The notes beneath the pieces are model-generated. The model saw nothing but the letters and a program-made list of their open reading frames with translations, was not told where the DNA came from and did not search any database. This document shows positions 3,069-34,826 of a stretch of DNA of 34,826 nucleotides, one piece after another. This DNA is from a virus. Taxonomy: Duplodnaviria > Heunggongvirae > Uroviricota > Caudoviricetes. The stretch is from the IMG/VR virus record IMGVR_UViG_2877251553_000002, one strand, 5' to 3'. Every line of letters begins with the position of its first letter. The stretch's first letter is position 1. Made by a program: the position numbers and the translations under genes.

Positions 3069-4123
3069 CCAGTCAGTCTGGATATGGGCCAGTAGCAGTA
3101 GCGGGTGTGATAAATGGGGCCGTTAATGCCGTAAAAAGTAAGGGATTTGGCTCTGTACCGCGGTTCTGTTGTCTCAGGGCGTGCATCAGTCCACCGGATG
3201 CTGAGCACCCCTTCAAACCGTGTGTCGGGTATGATGCCCAGGCGGCCAGCAACGGAATACTCACCTGGCAGCGCATTCCTTACCCAGGCCAGGAAATCAC
3301 TCTTAGTGTCAAAACGGATAACATCTTCAGGCAGAAAAGCACACCCAAAGCCGAATGCGCCGGGTATCGCCAGACGGCCTTTTGTCCGGTCGTAAATGTC
3401 GCTCTGTGCTTCCATCGTGGCCGCACTTTTCAGCCCCAGATTATCCCGGGACTTCTGTTGTGCCTTTTCGCCTGCTGCTGCGATTTCTGACAGATGGTTA
3501 GCCATTTTCAGAGTGCCGGTAAGCGCAGCATCAATGTCATTTTTGGCCTGTTCTGCTGCGCGGGCATAACCTGCGGCATCCTGTGCGCTCTGTCCGGCTG
3601 CGGCTGCATTTGCTCCTGTGCTTGTCACATCTTCCGCAGTGGCCTTTCTGTCCTCAGCTGTGACGGTTGCATCCTGTCTGGCATTCTCCGCAAAACGTTG
3701 TGCATCATCACGGGCCGTTGCGGCTGCCGCCACATCCTGCGCCGTCTGCTGTGCGTTTCCGGCTGCGGCCCCGGCGCTCTGCTGCGCCTGCACCACCATT
3801 TCCTCAAAGCGTTTGACGACATCCGGTTTCAGGTCGCCCTCATCAGGAGCAATCAGAAAGTCATTCAGCGTGCCGGGCTTTGAGTCCTCATATACAGCAA
3901 TGTCGCCAACGTTGTACTCGTTGTGCCAGCCCGGTTTCAGATACACACCATATTTTCCAGTCCGCGCATGGAAACAGTATTCACCATCGTTTCCTGTCAT
4001 CACATCAGCAACAGTGTGCATCACCACTTCCGGGGTGTTTACCCGGGATTTCAGAATAATATGGTATCCGGACATGGGGATACCTGCGCCATCAGTCAGC
4101 GCACCTGATATCACTACAGACAT
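3065..4123 (-). CDS. lambdoid side tail fibre (Stf)-like protein, short form
   Basis: N-terminus with DIAVYEDSKPGTLNDFL motif resembling the prophage side-tail-fibre N-terminal domain, followed by Ala/Gln-rich low-complexity region; much shorter than typical Stf. Confidence 0.6.
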   Translation of the reverse strand: MSVVISGALTDGAGIPMSGYHIILKSRVNTPEVVMHTVADVMTGNDGEYCFHARTGKYGVYLKPGWHNEYNVGDIAVYEDSKPGTLNDFLIAPDEGDLKPDVVKRFEEMVVQAQQSAGAAAGNAQQTAQDVAAAATARDDAQRFAENARQDATVTAEDRKATAEDVTSTGANAAAAGQSAQDAAGYARAAEQAKNDIDAALTGTLKMANHLSEIAAAGEKAQQKSRDNLGLKSAATMEAQSDIYDRTKGRLAIPGAFGFGCAFLPEDVIRFDTKSDFLAWVRNALPGEYSVAGRLGIIPDTRFEGVLSIRWTDARPETTEPRYRAKSLTFYGINGPIYHTRYCYWPISRLTG

Positions 4124-4475
4124 AGTTTTTCTCGCGATAAATTAAATCAGGAAGAAATTTCCGGAGAGGCGGGCCATTCAATGGCGTTGTATGAGGTTTT
4201 ATCAGTGATGACACTGAAATCCATCGCCTGCAGCGATTTCGCGTAAATGCGGTACGCTTTCAGTTTTTCCCGGTCTTCGTCGCTGATTAGCCCCAGCAGC
4301 AGGTCTTCTTCCCATTCCCCTGTCCGGGCACTGACCTGAGCCAGAAGGGCATCACGCTCATCTTCCGCTTTGAGTCTGTAGTCAAAGACAAATTCATCAT
4401 TGCGGTAAAACCAGTAACCCGGCGCGGTAATGCGGCGGTTGGCGGTAATATCAGGAACTTGGTAATGACTCCAAC

Positions 4476-24194: not shown

Positions 24195-24269
<75 letters not shown>

Positions 24270-24272
24270 ATA

Positions 24273-24348
<76 letters not shown>

Positions 24349-24350
24349 GC

Positions 24351-24427
24351 TGGCCCACCACCGAGGACTCGAACCTCGCACCGTCAACTTAGAAGGTTGA
24401 TGCTCTATCCGGATGAGCTAGTGGTGG
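24351..24427 (-). tRNA. tRNA-Arg (anticodon UCU)
   Basis: Reverse complement CCACCACTAGCTCATCCGGATAGAGCATCAACCTTCTAAGTTGACGGTGCGAGGTTCGAGTCCTCGGTGGTGGGCCA; 7-bp acceptor stem, anticodon loop CTTCTAA. Confidence 0.75.
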
Positions 24428-24428
24428 T

Positions 24429-24505
24429 TGGTGGCCCTTGCTGGACTTGAACCAGCGACCTGGCGATTATGAGTCGCTCGCTCTGACCAACTGAGCTAAA
24501 GGGCC
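24429..24505 (-). tRNA. tRNA with CAU anticodon (tRNA-Ile2-like, or Met)
   Basis: Reverse complement GGCCCTTTAGCTCAGTTGGTCAGAGCGAGCGACTCATAATCGCCAGGTCGCTGGTTCAAGTCCAGCAAGGGCCACCA; resembles ileX-type tRNA. Confidence 0.8.
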
Positions 24506-27975: not shown

Positions 27976-28323
27976 TTACAACATAGTCAGGGACGTAAGC
28001 AGTCTTTTAGGCTGCCGCCAGTCGATACCTTCAAGGAGCATCGCCAGCTGTGCCGGTGTGAGGAACACTTTGCCATCCCGGGCTGACGGCCAGGCGAAGC
28101 GGCCGCGCTCCAGCCGTTTGGTCAGCAGACACAGTCCATCGCCGGTAGACCAGAGGAGCTTTACCTGACTGCCATTACGCCCACGGAAGATAAAAACGTG
28201 ACCTGACATCGGATCGTCTTTCAGCGTCGTCTGCACCTTTGCCGCCAGGCCGTTGAAGCCATTTCTCATATCGGTGATACCGGCAACCAGCCAAATTTTG
28301 GTCCCGGAAGGTAACGGGATCAT
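27976..28323 (-). CDS. IS66-family TnpB (orf2)
   Basis: 115-aa ORF identical to copy 1. Confidence 0.85.
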   Translation of the reverse strand: MIPLPSGTKIWLVAGITDMRNGFNGLAAKVQTTLKDDPMSGHVFIFRGRNGSQVKLLWSTGDGLCLLTKRLERGRFAWPSARDGKVFLTPAQLAMLLEGIDWRQPKRLLTSLTML

Positions 28324-28721
28324 CGCTTCAGTTCCTGTATCAGCAGAGTCAGGAGCTTTTCGCTGACATTGCCATTGAAGCGGAGCGTCCCGTGCCGGAA
28401 CGTTACCTCACAGCTGATACTGAGGGTTTCCGGATCCTCTGCGAGCGATTCTGGCTGTTCGGCAGCTGCATCGAGAGTCACAGGAAGTAGCTGGGGGCTA
28501 TCTGAAGAAGGTAATAGCAGCTTTCCCTCGCGCCATTGTTGTCGCCATTTGAACAACAGATTGGCGTTAATGCCATTTTCAAGAGCAAGTTTTGAGATGG
28601 ATATCCCGGGTTCACAGGAGGCAGCAACGAGCTGCTGTTTAAATTCGGGAGGATAATTAGGGCAGCCTTTTCGCCTGCCGGGATTCACATTTTTCTGCAT
28701 ATCTGACACTTTGGTTCCCAC
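28320..28721 (-). CDS. IS66-family TnpA (orf1)
   Basis: 133-aa ORF; alternative start at 28700. Confidence 0.8.
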   Translation of the reverse strand: MGTKVSDMQKNVNPGRRKGCPNYPPEFKQQLVAASCEPGISISKLALENGINANLLFKWRQQWREGKLLLPSSDSPQLLPVTLDAAAEQPESLAEDPETLSISCEVTFRHGTLRFNGNVSEKLLTLLIQELKR

Positions 28722-28818
28722 TACTTATTTGGTGGACACCACTTTGTCTAATTCGTCAGATTCTGACCAGACGGTTCAGGCTGTACGCTTACGTTTTTAT
28801 AATCCGGCCATGACATTT

Positions 28819-29178
28819 TTACAACATTGTCAGTGCGTTAAGGCGGGATGTTTTTGGCTGACGCCAGTCCAGCTTATCGAGGAGCATTGCCAGTTGCGAG
28901 CGGGTAATGGATACCTTGCCGTCACGCACAGCAGGCCAGATAAACTGGCCTTCCTCCAGGCGTCTGGTGAACAGGCACAGACCATCAGCATCAGCCCACA
29001 GGATTTTAATCATGTCACCCCGTCGGCCACGGAAGATGAACAGGTGACCGGAGAAGGGATTATCATTCAGCACATGCTGTACCTGTTCACCCAGCCCGTT
29101 GAAAGACTTACGCATATCGGTTATCCCAGCAACGAGCCAGATGCGGGTGCCTGACGGGAGTGAGATCATCGTCCCCAC
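28819..29178 (-). CDS. IS66-family TnpB-like protein (divergent)
   Basis: MGTMISLPSGTRIWLVAGITDMRKSFNGL..., roughly 60 percent identical by eye to the ISEc8-like TnpB. Confidence 0.75.
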   Translation of the reverse strand: MGTMISLPSGTRIWLVAGITDMRKSFNGLGEQVQHVLNDNPFSGHLFIFRGRRGDMIKILWADADGLCLFTRRLEEGQFIWPAVRDGKVSITRSQLAMLLDKLDWRQPKTSRLNALTML

Positions 29179-29597
29179 CCGGTCAGTTCACGGATCAACA
29201 CTGTGAGCAGCTCTGGTGAAGGATTTTCCAGCGTCATGTTACCGTGACGGAACTCCACCTTGCAGGAGCTGGCACTAACTGTAGTCTGAGTAGATAAAGA
29301 CGGAGTAAGAGCAGCCACCGGTTCTTTCGGCTCATCCGGCGTTATCTCCACAGGTAATAATTCAACGCCAGTGTCAGAAGAGGTTGTTACCGGAAGACGC
29401 CGCGATATGCGCCCTTCGTTCTGCCAGAGCCTGAGCCATTTGAACAGCAGGTTATCATTGATATCGTGTTCCCGGGCAATACGGGCAACAGAGGCTCCTG
29501 GTTGTGAAGCCAGTTTAACCATTTGAAGTTTAAACTCATTTGAAAATGATCTGCGGGTTCTGCAGATAATGCTTTCTGTTCCATAACAGGTGTCCAC
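29166..29597 (-). CDS. IS66-family TnpA-like protein (divergent); start uncertain
   Basis: Contains the conserved ...DNLLFKWLRLWQNEG... segment of IS66 orf1 proteins. Confidence 0.65.
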   Translation of the reverse strand: MDTCYGTESIICRTRRSFSNEFKLQMVKLASQPGASVARIAREHDINDNLLFKWLRLWQNEGRISRRLPVTTSSDTGVELLPVEITPDEPKEPVAALTPSLSTQTTVSASSCKVEFRHGNMTLENPSPELLTVLIRELTGWGR

Positions 29598-29670
29598 TAG
29601 TTGAAAAGGTGGGCACCTACGTTACCAATACAGGCTTAATGGCTACATACGGCGGTCAGTTTACGCTTAC

Positions 29671-29944
29671 CAAAATACGCTGTTGCTTTTTTTAATATAT
29701 ATCGCTCAAGGCGAGCTTCATTTAACGCCTTACGCAGTTGCAGAATTTCAGATTCCAGTTCAGCCACCGTGCGGGAACCAGGAGTACCGAGCCCTTTTCT
29801 GGCGGCGGTAACCCATTGTCCTAAAGTGCCTTCAGGAAGGGATAATCGGGAAGCGCCTTCACTGATCGAAAGTTGATTTTCAAGAACCGTTCTGACAGCT
29901 TCGGCTTTGAACTCTTTAGAGTAACGTTGGTTTTTTCTGCTCAT
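29671..29944 (-). pseudogene. IS3-family OrfA, 3' truncated
   Basis: First ~91 codons of an IS600-like OrfA; ORF tail at 29636-29670 is IS66-derived. Confidence 0.6.
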
Positions 29945-30067: not shown

Positions 30068-30613
30068 TTATTTTAAGGAAAGCAACTGCTCTACGGTCAT
30101 GTTTTTAATTGCGCCCCGGTTTACAAGAGTCCAGCCCTGTTTTTCCAGATAAAACCGGAAAGTCTCCAGGGTACAGACCAGTGCGCCATCAGGAACGGTT
30201 TCGGTGAATTCGACATTGCCGAATTTGTCGAAGTGAACAACCAGAGTGCGACCATCACCCGGAATCATCTTGTCAGCAGGTGGGGTGTTATTCTGGCGCA
30301 GTTCGGCCTCCATGCGGTCGAACTCAGCAATGTAGGCTTCCTTGAATGTGGCGGCTTTTTTGCCCGTGAAGCCCATCACCAGGAAAACGAAGCCGTTTTT
30401 GGTGATTTGGTAGGCGTTATAAGAATTGCCGCGGTGTTCGAATTTAACCCGCGAAAAGTTGCTGGTTAAAAATAGTTCAGAACATTCGAGGGATTCTATT
30501 TTTTGAACAACATGGTGATGCTGCTTGCCAAAAAACTCAGCAATCGAAATAGAAGTAGTGACGGCGCGACCATTTTCGATGGTTACGTCAGGGTGAGAAA
30601 GGGTAGTAGCCAT
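30068..30613 (-). CDS. rha: phage regulatory protein Rha (antirepressor-like)
   Basis: Start ATG at 30613 with GAGGA 7 nt upstream; Rha-family signature ...SISIAEFFGKQHHHVVQKIESL...YQITKNGFVFLVMGFTGKKAATFKEAYIAEFDRMEAEL... Confidence 0.75.
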   Translation of the reverse strand: MATTLSHPDVTIENGRAVTTSISIAEFFGKQHHHVVQKIESLECSELFLTSNFSRVKFEHRGNSYNAYQITKNGFVFLVMGFTGKKAATFKEAYIAEFDRMEAELRQNNTPPADKMIPGDGRTLVVHFDKFGNVEFTETVPDGALVCTLETFRFYLEKQGWTLVNRGAIKNMTVEQLLSLK

Positions 30614-30695
30614 AATGACATCCTCAAGTGATAAGTTAATTAACTCACCAGCAGAGGTGCTAATCTCATGGGTGGTGAGACGCACAGGGTTAGCA

Positions 30696-30908
30696 CTACC
30701 GGTCACTCGAGAACCCGGCCAGCCTTGCGGCTGCCCCGCACGCCTCACCATAATTTGAATGTGGCTGTGCATTACGCATAAAAAAAACCGCTTCAGCGCG
30801 GTTATGCGCTCGAGTAACTTTCGGGGTGCTAATCCCGGCGCCCGTTTTATGAGGTGCAGGTGCATTATAATTCCACCCGTTCTGGTTTTCAATAGCTACA
30901 TTCAACAT
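30696..30908 (-). CDS. hypothetical 70-aa ORF with good ribosome site but an intrinsic terminator inside it
   Basis: AGGAAAGAG upstream of ATG at 30908; hairpin plus T8 at 30780-30803 lies mid-ORF, so coding status is doubtful. Confidence 0.2.
   Translation of the reverse strand: MLNVAIENQNGWNYNAPAPHKTGAGISTPKVTRAHNRAEAVFFMRNAQPHSNYGEACGAAARLAGFSSDR
30780..30803 (-). terminator. rho-independent terminator, minus strand, upstream of rha
   Basis: ACCGC-GCTGAA-GCGGT hairpin followed by 8 T on the minus strand, embedded in a longer palindrome CGCATAA...TTATGCG. Confidence 0.5.
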
Positions 30909-30930: not shown

Positions 30931-31085
30931 AAGTGAATTTTGTGATGCGGTGCCTAGTGCCTCCAGGTGACGTTAACCAGTTAACAATTACAGTCGGCTT
31001 TCCCACCCAAACCAATAAGGACTAACATGACTTTTAACTGTGCCGCGTGCGCTTAGCCGCATTCACCGCATCACAAAATTCACTT
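30931..31085. repeat. pair of 22-bp perfect inverted repeats (AAGTGAATTTTGTGATGCGGTG) separated by 111 bp
   Basis: Arm 1 at 30931-30952, reverse-complement arm at 31064-31085; spacer contains GTTAACCAGTTAAC. Confidence 0.8.
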
Positions 31086-31140
31086 TAAAAAGGGCGGACA
31101 TCAGCCAGCAATTAAACCGATGCCGCCAACTGGTACTTCA
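31086..31140 (-). ncRNA. DicF-like small RNA with intrinsic terminator
   Basis: Minus-strand sequence ...AGUUGGCGGCAUCGGUUUAAUUGCUGGCUGAUGUCCGCCCUUUUU resembles the DicF sRNA of the Qin dicB operon (GGCGG...CCGCC stem, U-run) and lies in the equivalent position downstream of the dicA-like gene; ends approximate. Confidence 0.45.
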
Positions 31141-31329
31141 CACAGCAATGTCGTTATTTACAACCGGAAGCGCACTCCCACCATTTAAATTTCACAGACA
31201 AGACCGACTCTTTATGAATACCGGAAATGCGCCTTCGTGTTGTGCCCGGTTTTATTTCACCACCTCCGGGCTTTGGTGGCCTCGGCTATACCTCTACAGC
31301 GAGAATATTGAATTAATCCAATAAATGGA

Positions 31330-31482
31330 TTAGCTGGTATTTTTGGCAAGCCAGCGACGTGCGCCAGCTTCGGTTTTAAACGTTTTGCTTTTGGTATACG
31401 TCATGGCGGTGAATGTGCCGTCCTGATTGGGAAACACGCCACACACTAGGGATTCGTTGTTGCCAAGATCGATAGTATCCAT
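31330..31482 (-). CDS. small protein (50 aa), YdfA-like
   Basis: ATG with GAGG 8 nt upstream; MDTIDLGNNESLVCGVFPNQDGTFTAMTYTKSKTFKTEAGARRWLAKNTS; first ORF downstream of the repressor gene. Confidence 0.5.
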   Translation of the reverse strand: MDTIDLGNNESLVCGVFPNQDGTFTAMTYTKSKTFKTEAGARRWLAKNTS

Positions 31483-31682: not shown

Positions 31683-32089
31683 TTATTTGTTTGCGCTTCT
31701 TTTGCGAGCTTTGAGTAGTTCTTCAAAAAGTTTGTTGAAATTTTCAACTCGAGCACGCATCTCTGACAACAGGGCCTTTTGCTCTGACTCAGGCAGTGCG
31801 TCGAACAGTTGAAGTAACTCTTTTTGATCTTCTGTCAGAATGGCTGGCTGATTATCCGGGATCGGTTCGCCTGGTTGTTTATCTTCATCCCAAAAAGAAG
31901 CCAAGTCGGTGAGCACTGAAGCGCTTGGCTCAGTGCGAATAATCTTTTCCCCGCCGGCTGTGTTTCATCTCTTTCCCATTGAGAAATTGTTACGTGAGCC
32001 ACTTTGACCAGCTTACCTAATGCGGCCTGAGACAGTTTTAATTTTTTACGCCTATGTAAGAGGCGAGCACCGAAGGTTTCGTTTTTCAT
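31683..32089 (-). pseudogene. dicA: DicA-like HTH (XRE/cI-type) repressor, frameshifted
   Basis: ORFs 31835-32089 (HTH: ...LSQAALGKLVKVAHVTISQWERDETQPAGKRLFALSQALQCSPTWLLFG) and 31683-31916 (...LPESEQKALLSEMRARVENFNKLFEELLKARKR) overlap in different frames and together resemble DicA. Confidence 0.7.
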
Positions 32090-32970: not shown

Positions 32971-33042
32971 TGAAGTGGCACACTGAATTTGGCCACCTGA
33001 ACAGAGGTGATATGCTCACCTCAGAACAACACAGGTGCTCCA

Positions 33043-34826
<1,784 letters not shown>

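Follow-up and report, generated by a model that had tools for sequence, protein, structure and literature searches.

A perfect 22-bp inverted repeat after a DicF-family small RNA is the closing stem of a conserved phage RNA domain and a probable RNase III processing site

Introduction

The small RNAs (sRNAs) of the DicF family and the genes that follow them (dicB, kilR or antirepressor genes) are prophage products that stop division of the host or trigger induction, and the output of the sRNA and that of the following gene both depend on termination and processing at the junction between the two. In the Qin prophage of Escherichia coli K-12, DicF is described as a 53-nt RNA ending at its terminator and as a 72-nt RNA, made by RNase III, which extends 19 nt past the end of the shorter form (PMC5069750 and PMC9438474, in the passages that cite Faubladier et al. 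1990). A comparison of RNA sequencing (RNA-seq) from the wild type and an rnc mutant lists an rnc-dependent position in this region, at 1649470, labelled 'dicF-dicB' and marked as known (PMC5371410 Table S1). Another DicF-like sRNA is KilS, annotated as b4833 in the 5' untranslated region (UTR) of kilR in prophage Rac, which has been verified by Northern blotting and is present in Hfq RIL-seq (RNA interaction by ligation and sequencing) data (PMC8175672). Here we analyse the corresponding junction in a 34,826-nt stretch of DNA from a Caudoviricetes virus (IMG/VR record IMGVR_UViG_2877251553_000002; the whole stretch is called the window below), in which a first-pass annotation had noticed a DicF-like sRNA followed directly by a perfect inverted repeat at 30931-30952 and 31064-31085, and had suggested that this repeat is an RNase III processing site, a pair of recombination sites, or an insert resembling a miniature inverted-repeat transposable element (MITE).

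RNase III sites of a simpler kind are found between the cistrons of the early mRNA of phage T7 and in the N leader of phage lambda, where a hairpin within a long phage transcript lies just upstream of the ribosome-binding site (RBS) of a gene, and where cleavage splits the transcript into separate RNA products and fixes the 5' leader of the gene that follows. These sites are unrelated in sequence to the element in the window, and each is a plain hairpin interrupted by an internal loop rather than a domain of five helices. We find that the 22-bp repeat is the closing stem (helix P1) of a conserved multi-helix RNA domain of about 155 nt, and that the locus is an unremarkable example of an arrangement that is for the most part known, namely an sRNA of the DicF/KilS type followed by its standard processing hairpin, with a rare KilS-like allele of the sRNA.

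A covarying RNA domain closed by the inverted repeat

The two 22-nt arms of the repeat (AAGTGAATTTTGTGATGCGGTG at 30931-30952) are 100% complementary and lie 111 nt apart, as the first-pass annotation had it; by a rough estimate, about 6e-7 such arm pairs would be expected by chance in 35 kb. The 22-mer has no further copy in the window, even when up to 3 mismatches are allowed (0 expected from shuffles). The element bounded by the repeat runs from 31085 to 30931 on the minus strand and begins directly 3' of the sRNA terminator. A 261-nt minus-strand transcript of the region folds with a z score of -5.0 against shuffled sequences, and the long RNA stem that had been predicted corresponds to the 22 bp of helix P1. 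In the single-sequence fold, the U tract of the terminator also pairs with a GAAAGG downstream; this extension of the stem is not kept in dicB- or kilR-type copies and was left out of the structure used here.

Homologous loci were collected by a pattern scan of species-representative genomes and viral contigs, which gave 137 further loci that reduce to 68 distinct variants from E. coli, Shigella, E. albertii, E. ruysiae, Citrobacter, Raoultella and viral contigs, and the consensus structure calculated by RNAalifold consists of five helices including P1 (Table 1). Across the 42 pairs and 68 variants, 98.5% of the 2853 pair cells are standard, as against 30-43% paired in a control in which the partners were slid by 1-3 columns. 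Compensatory changes on both sides occur in 14 of the 42 pairs (57 cells), and none of 500 column shuffles reached these values. Helix P1 alone has seven pairs with compensatory changes, and in Raoultella (L015) and in L139 its arms are of quite different sequence with the pairing kept. The core of the domain is nearly invariant; the flanks vary, as does an insert within helix P3 that differs in length and sequence among homologues.

G·U pairs occur at many positions of the alignment, the most frequent example being pair 9/190, which is G·U in 52 of the 68 variants; three pairs that are G-C in the window are G·U in the K-12 Qin copy. The perfect 22-bp stem of the window is an exception: most homologues carry wobble pairs and a one-base bulge in P1. 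A covariance model built from the dicF-adjacent elements (R1) scores 165 bits on the minus strand and 41 bits on the plus strand. Because the G·U changes would be mismatches in DNA or in an RNA of the other strand, and because the two strands score so differently, the structure is selected at the RNA level and on the strand of the operon.

The first-pass annotation had seen in the 111-bp interior only a 15-codon open reading frame (ORF) and the sequence GTTAACCAGTTAAC. Both are present, the former on the minus strand at 31028..30981 (product MLVLIGLGGKADCNC) and the latter at 30972-30985, but the interior is a covarying RNA domain, and the ORF lies in its variable insert, where the homologues have unrelated sequence, so that the ORF is not conserved. 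A search of this region against Rfam at permissive thresholds returned sub-threshold matches to DicF and STnc100 and nothing else credible.

In the window copy, helix P4 contains two adjacent mismatched pairs (two non-standard pairs by cmsearch). This can be explained by the hybrid composition of the element, in which the insert and the 5' strand of P4 are Rac-type and the 3' strand of P4 is Qin-type; going by these sequence affinities, there looks to be a recombination junction inside the P4 loop TGTTAACTGGTT.

RNase III processing at helix P1

We consider it probable (roughly 0.65) that the repeats are the P1 arms of a P1-P5 domain of about 155 nt that is cut by RNase III after a DicF-family sRNA in the early-left operon, of the dicB type, of a Rac/Qin-like prophage. 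Of the three suggestions made in the first-pass annotation, the RNase III site is the only one that the evidence supports. In K-12 coordinates, the 19 additional nucleotides of the longer DicF take its 3' end to position 13 of the 5' arm (22 nt), which corresponds to 31073 in the window, and position 1649470 falls 8 nt inside the element. Alignments show that the window element is orthologous to this site with its mapped rnc-dependent end. About 22 bp of duplex fit into the RNase III dimer, which cuts the two strands with a stagger that leaves a 2-nt 3' overhang; of the two pairs that lie between the cuts, at least one is usually a G-C (PMC6212723). Helix P1 of the window has 22 consecutive Watson-Crick pairs and so provides the uninterrupted double-stranded RNA of about 22 bp that the enzyme requires. 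By orthology with K-12 and the overhang rule, we place the predicted cuts in the window after 31073 in the 5' arm and between 30942 and 30941 in the 3' arm, with a G-C and a U-A pair between them, and we infer that the same cut is made in the window copy as in its K-12 orthologue.

The Qin dicBF site is a close counterpart among described systems. It agrees with the window in its orthologous sequence (about 83% identity over the whole element by blastn, nearly identical outside the variable insert), in its position directly after the sRNA terminator, in the P1-P5 domain and in the 22-bp stem. The two differ in that dicB lies downstream in Qin and not in the window, in the allele of the upstream sRNA, in the perfect pairing of P1 in the window against three G·U pairs in K-12, and in the two P4 mismatches of the window copy. 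If the arrangement works as proposed, transcripts that stop at the terminator would give the short sRNA, and those that read through would fold P1 into a 22-bp duplex of the size that RNase III accepts. The enzyme would then cut both arms of P1, which would release a longer form of the sRNA with about 19 extra nt and would detach the downstream RNA (the leader into isrK-C4-rha) with a short new 5' end.

Several points weigh against this reading. The cut position is derived from product sizes quoted secondhand, with a gel error of a few nucleotides, and from an RNA-seq table with low counts. A study of 2023 emphasises an RNase III cut upstream of DicF, in which the enzyme makes the 5' end of a 190-nt DicF and stabilises the upstream part of the transcript, and it leaves a downstream cut undiscussed (PMC10448788). 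The locus in the window may also be decaying, given the two P4 mismatches and a frameshift in the upstream repressor gene. A more fundamental difficulty is that the inner domain is far more conserved than a processing stem needs, and that the copies in phage P7, in the STnc100 RNA of phage 933W and in the viral contig L096 have a helix P1 of only about 9 bp. Cleavage by RNase III can thus be neither the whole function of the domain nor its original one, and the long P1, and with it competence for RNase III, seems to be particular to the DicF-adjacent subfamily. The inner helices P2-P5 must be conserved for some other reason, as an RNase III stem alone needs none of them, and this conservation is the only part of the locus that might repay experiments.

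The upstream small RNA

The sRNA in front of the element had been compared in the first-pass annotation with DicF of the Qin dicB operon. This holds as far as the family is concerned, because the operon context, the GGCGG...CCGCC terminator with its U run, and the position directly upstream of the P1 stem are shared with DicF; a terminator scan places the stem at 31124..31097, followed by CGCCC and by U5 at 31091..31087. The covariance-model search that had been proposed as a check does find a match to Rfam DicF (RF00039) at 31142..31092 on the minus strand, but its 28.6 bits are below the gathering score of 48, whereas the same tool gives canonical DicF 76-77 bits and the O157 variant 54.7 bits. 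The 5' single-stranded part of DicF and its loop stretch AGUUUUACUCCG, which pairs with the RBS of ftsZ (PMC5069750), are not conserved: AGUUUUACUCCG is replaced by GGUUUAAUUGCU in the window sRNA, so that the known ftsZ pairing core, with its ACUCCG loop, is absent. Duplex energies of pairing with ftsZ, calculated for the whole RNA and in 16-nt windows, do not separate even authentic DicF from shuffled controls.

The relationship with KilS is closer. A nearly identical 5' extension of about 45 nt, which DicF does not have, and the terminator stem are common to the window sRNA and K-12 KilS, and identity with the K-12 kilS locus is 83% over 105 nt. We therefore assign the sRNA, on sequence comparison, to the KilS type of the DicF family, closest to KilS rather than to Qin DicF. 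The loops of the terminator hairpins differ (GGUUUAAUUGCUGG against CAGUUUUUUUCUUGAAGUUCGG), that of the window being unlike both DicF and KilS, and among 5426 complete E. coli genomes only about 26 have the exact window allele at >=95% identity. Neither kilR nor sieB is present, so that the sRNA does not lie in a kilR 5' UTR but is followed by isrK, C4 and a Rha-family gene. From the KilS-kilR spacer of Rac, the window shares the type of the variable insert. A KilS-type sRNA with isrK or dicB downstream also occurs at other loci.

The same rnc comparison contains a site in Rac of K-12, at 1418510 (about 2011 in L006), which lies 8 nt upstream of the annotated 5' end of KilS and has 41 reads in the rnc mutant and 0 in the wild type, which are low counts (PMC5371410). 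RNase III may also act upstream of KilS, as is reported for the 190-nt DicF precursor.

Distribution of the element

In E. coli K-12, the dicF-dicB spacer of the Qin prophage and the kilS-kilR spacer of the Rac prophage both contain this element. By blastn it is found in 4642 of 5426 complete E. coli genomes (about 86%), with 1-9 copies each (median 2), and the number of copies per genome tracks the number of prophages. Among 144 copies, 141 lie directly after a DicF-like terminator, and the other three are also in phage operons. Canonical DicF upstream is combined with dicB in 80 copies, with kilR in 3 and with isrK in 2; the KilS type is combined with dicB in 1, with kilR in 27 and with isrK in 1; the sRNA type of the window is followed by isrK in 6 copies and by dicB or kilR in none. 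The element is thus a constant hinge between upstream sRNA alleles and downstream modules that are freely combined. Homology between the window and Qin stops within a few bases of the 3' arm, and in each downstream module a start codon follows about 15-30 nt after helix P1.

Relation to STnc100, PasD and the ban operons of phages P1 and P7

The Rfam model STnc100 (RF02076) matches 31080..30939 of the window with 30.7 bits, below its threshold of 47 and over model positions 21-154 of 206 only, and this threshold is reached at the dicF-adjacent element by none of 16 related loci. The match is reciprocal, as R1, built from dicF-adjacent copies only, scores 63.3 bits (E about 1e-19) on the STnc100 RNA of phage 933W, which lies downstream of stx2 and has 207.7 bits with the Rfam model. 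Both RNAs have the GGUGAAU junction, P2, P4, the P5 hairpin with its AGGCA loop and the GGCACC closing strand. They differ in that STnc100 is a stand-alone RNA of about 206 nt with its own 3' terminator, a short P1 and a place in the late region, whereas the window element is without the 3' third, belongs to the early-left operon and has a P1 of 22 bp. On these scores in both directions, we regard the window element as a distant relative of STnc100 that shares its core fold. STnc100 copies are abundant RNAs, one of which has been seen by Northern blotting in enterohaemorrhagic E. coli (PMC5331693), and base pairing is the mode of action assumed for the sRNAs STnc100 and PasD (bioRxiv 10.64898/2026.05.13.724894). 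In the literature searched, we found nothing that links STnc100 with the dicF-dicB spacer.

R1 also finds a full copy in the ban operon of phage P7, just upstream of terB (118 bits; L145 2480-2642), and a partial copy in phage P1, upstream of tciA (67 bits; L146 2499-2622). A covarying five-helix domain that is this widespread in E. coli, is common to P1/P7 and STnc100, and remains below every Rfam threshold may merit the definition of a family, with an incremental gain.

The ban operon of phages P1 and P7 is controlled by C1 and carries tRNA genes, and the P1 record annotates a 'dicF-like region' in it. In the viral contig L096, two copies of the domain (3475-3590 and 4283-4407 on the minus strand, 37.6 and 123 bits) are interleaved with four tRNA genes, and in P7, 933W and L096 alike the domain or STnc100 shares its operon region with phage tRNA genes. 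The window has a cluster of four tRNA genes at 24198-24505 on the minus strand (Rfam tRNA, 56-70 bits), with no copy of the RNA domain adjoining. An antiterminator RNA of the put type, as in phage HK022, was also considered for the early-left position and was rejected, as R1 finds nothing in the immunity and early region of HK022.

Alternative explanations

The alternative that survives best is compatible with RNase III cleavage and places the function elsewhere: P2-P5 would be the functional unit, an RNA like STnc100 or PasD that controls the following toxic or regulatory gene, and the long P1 would be only the means of its excision or insulation in this subfamily. It might act as a stable excised RNA, as a sponge, or as a site to which a protein, RNA polymerase or the ribosome binds. 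This is a tentative proposal, which draws on the nearly invariant core between variable flanks and insert, on the recovery of this core by R1 in 933W STnc100, P7 and P1, where helix P1 has only about 9 bp, on the abundance of STnc100 copies (PMC5331693), on the presumed base pairing of STnc100 and PasD (bioRxiv 10.64898/2026.05.13.724894), and on the nature of what comes next, namely dicB, kilR, tciA or a module with an antirepressor, of which several are annotated as toxic or as division inhibitors. It has to contend with the fact that the window copy lacks the 3' third of STnc100, including its own terminator.

A related and equally tentative idea is that P2-P5 represents a distinct, so far unnamed class of phage RNA modules with an activity of its own, to which the 22-bp P1 was added later. 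That activity could be the binding of a host factor or of ribosomes, or it could reside in an excised stable RNA. The inner domain is characterised by the invariant GGUGAAU junction and by a CCNGG-AGGCA-CCNGG hairpin that displays GGAGG; it is kept from prophages of the Qin/Rac type to the ban operon of P1/P7 and to STnc100/PasD, and it is always just upstream of a toxic or regulatory gene. If such a class exists, P1 would let RNase III excise the module in operons of the DicF type.

It is improbable that the element is a DNA linker for homologous recombination at a module boundary of lambdoid prophages, with an incidental fold. One element does join many combinations of sRNA and downstream module, and the window copy, with its Rac-type and Qin-type parts, looks like a product of such exchange; however, any stretch that is conserved can be expected to undergo reassortment as a side effect, and the compensatory double changes, the changes that preserve pairing as G·U and the strand asymmetry indicate selection on an RNA fold, not only on DNA identity.

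The two other suggestions of the first-pass annotation, a MITE-like insert and a pair of recombination sites, would make the arms the terminal inverted repeats of a miniature mobile element or the sites of crossover that bound an invertible segment. Both readings are very unlikely: they have in their favour only the perfect 22-bp inverted repeat around a short segment, whereas the flanks (TTTTTA and CGGTGA) contain no target-site duplication, none of the 141 DicF-adjacent copies is inverted, the copies follow prophage number and the DicF-like terminator (141 of 144) without dispersal into unrelated contexts, no second copy was found in the window, and the arms of most homologues, with G·U pairs and a bulge, are imperfect as DNA repeats and carry substitutions that are meaningful only in RNA.

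A small protein encoded by the segment, either by the 15-codon ORF or by the frame that reads ...IVNWLTSPGGTRHRITKF..., has just as little chance, for although the latter frame is open through P4, P5 and P1 in most variants and DicB includes 32 additional codons from it in some phage annotations, its start codon is not conserved (GTG, TTG, ATG or none), its end varies with the downstream module, a frequent change in the arm replaces Arg by Cys, which is radical for a protein and G·U-neutral for the RNA, the length differences of the insert are not multiples of 3, and the 15-codon ORF is wholly within the non-conserved insert. One such annotation is that of phage mEp460 (L002 2295-2579), where DicB has a 32-codon N-terminal extension through P4, P5 and the P1 3' arm; this gene call is probably too long at its 5' end, since the start of K-12 DicB is an ATG after the element.

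Operon context and neighbouring genes

The functional signals around the element are all on the minus strand, and their order from 5' to 3' is a dicA-like repressor gene, a DUF1391 gene, the DicF-family sRNA, the repeat element, the isrK promoter, isrK, C4 and a Rha-family gene (Table 1). The first-pass annotation was thus right to place the sRNA downstream of a DicA-like repressor and a YdfA-like ORF, and to see no dicB-like ORF behind the repeat: in the window no dicB follows the element, and isrK, C4 and a Phage_pRha gene stand there instead.

Table 1. Features of the operon around the inverted repeat, in the order of transcription (positions in the window)
Feature	Position	Strand	Evidence or remark
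dicA-like helix-turn-helix (HTH) repressor gene, frameshifted	31683..32089	-	N-terminal part matches HTH_3, 53.2 bits
ydfA/ydaF-like small gene (DUF1391)	31330..31482	-	DUF1391 102.7 bits, E 7.9e-30
DicF-family sRNA, putative KilS type, 95 nt	31087..31181	-	homology with 98-nt KilS of Rac
P1 5' arm AAGUGAAUUUUGUGAUGCGGUG	31064..31085	-	inverted repeat and P1 covariation; predicted RNase III cut after 31073
P2 hairpin GCGGCUAAGCGCACGC, preceded by invariant junction AAU (31063..31061)	31045..31060	-	5 pairs, 99.4% paired
P3 (GGC/GCC), enclosing variable insert 31041..30999	30996..31044	-	pair 50/122 changes from A-U to C-G in 13 sequences
P4 GACUGUAAU-UGUUAACUG-GUUAACGUC, containing GTTAACCAGTTAAC	30969..30995	-	compensatory changes in 5/9 pairs across the family
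P5 hairpin CCUGG-AGGCA-CUAGG	30953..30967	-	most conserved part; common to STnc100 and P1/P7 copies
P1 3' arm CACCGCAUCACAAAAUUCACUU	30931..30952	-	inverted repeat; predicted staggered RNase III cut between 30942 and 30941
sigma-70-like promoter of isrK, TTGAAA-17-TATAAT	30864..30892	-	11/12 matches; ends 7 nt before Rfam isrK start
isrK-family Hfq-binding RNA with terminator (30803..30786)	30781..30857	-	Rfam isrK 63.8 bits, gathering score 50
C4-type antisense RNA (immI-like module)	30668..30755	-	Rfam C4 78.6 bits, gathering score 45
Rha-family regulatory (antirepressor-like) gene, in place of dicB/kilR	30068..30613	-	Phage_pRha 92.3 bits

The repressor gene consists of two overlapping ORFs, 31835..32089 and 31683..31916. 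Alignment with an otherwise identical intact gene of 135 aa (L005, E. coli FDAARGOS_943), which resembles DicA, shows that one G is missing from a run of G near 31888-31891. If this deletion is real and not a sequencing error, the downstream promoter of the dicB type may be derepressed. Genes in syntenic positions of E. coli genomes carry the DUF1391 annotation, and the arrangement of repressor, DUF1391 gene and sRNA is syntenic with Qin and Rac. A short ORF between the ydfA-like gene and the sRNA was considered as a remnant of sieB and rejected, as it is unrelated to K-12 SieB.

Downstream of the element, the region 30068-30892 on the minus strand is an immI-like module that replaces dicB/kilR and comprises a strong promoter-like site, isrK, the C4 antisense RNA and the Rha-family gene, whose syntenic counterpart in E. 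coli is annotated as Rha family; isrK is an Hfq-binding RNA, as in Gifsy-1 (PMC4825925). A 274-aa ORF in the window and the Rha calls of its relatives, in the style of the Prokaryotic Genome Annotation Pipeline (PGAP), extend across isrK and C4, and the true start of the Rha-family gene is probably the ATG at 30613. Another ORF of 70 aa (30696-30908, minus strand) starts 23 nt past the P1 3' arm and extends over the isrK promoter and isrK into C4. Its match to the Ash family is weak (17.6 bits, below the cut-off), and it may be spurious.

The ORF translations at 28320-29944 and 33007-34826 suggest what we take to be several insertion-sequence (IS) remnants, presumably including ORFs like those of the IS66 family, an IS600-like orfA fragment immediately downstream of the Rha gene, and orfA/orfB of an IS911-like element that continue into a C-terminus like that of a phage integrase. 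The density of IS remnants and the best matches, to loci of Shigella flexneri, would point to a genome of the Shigella type. The prophage looks IS-riddled and decaying.

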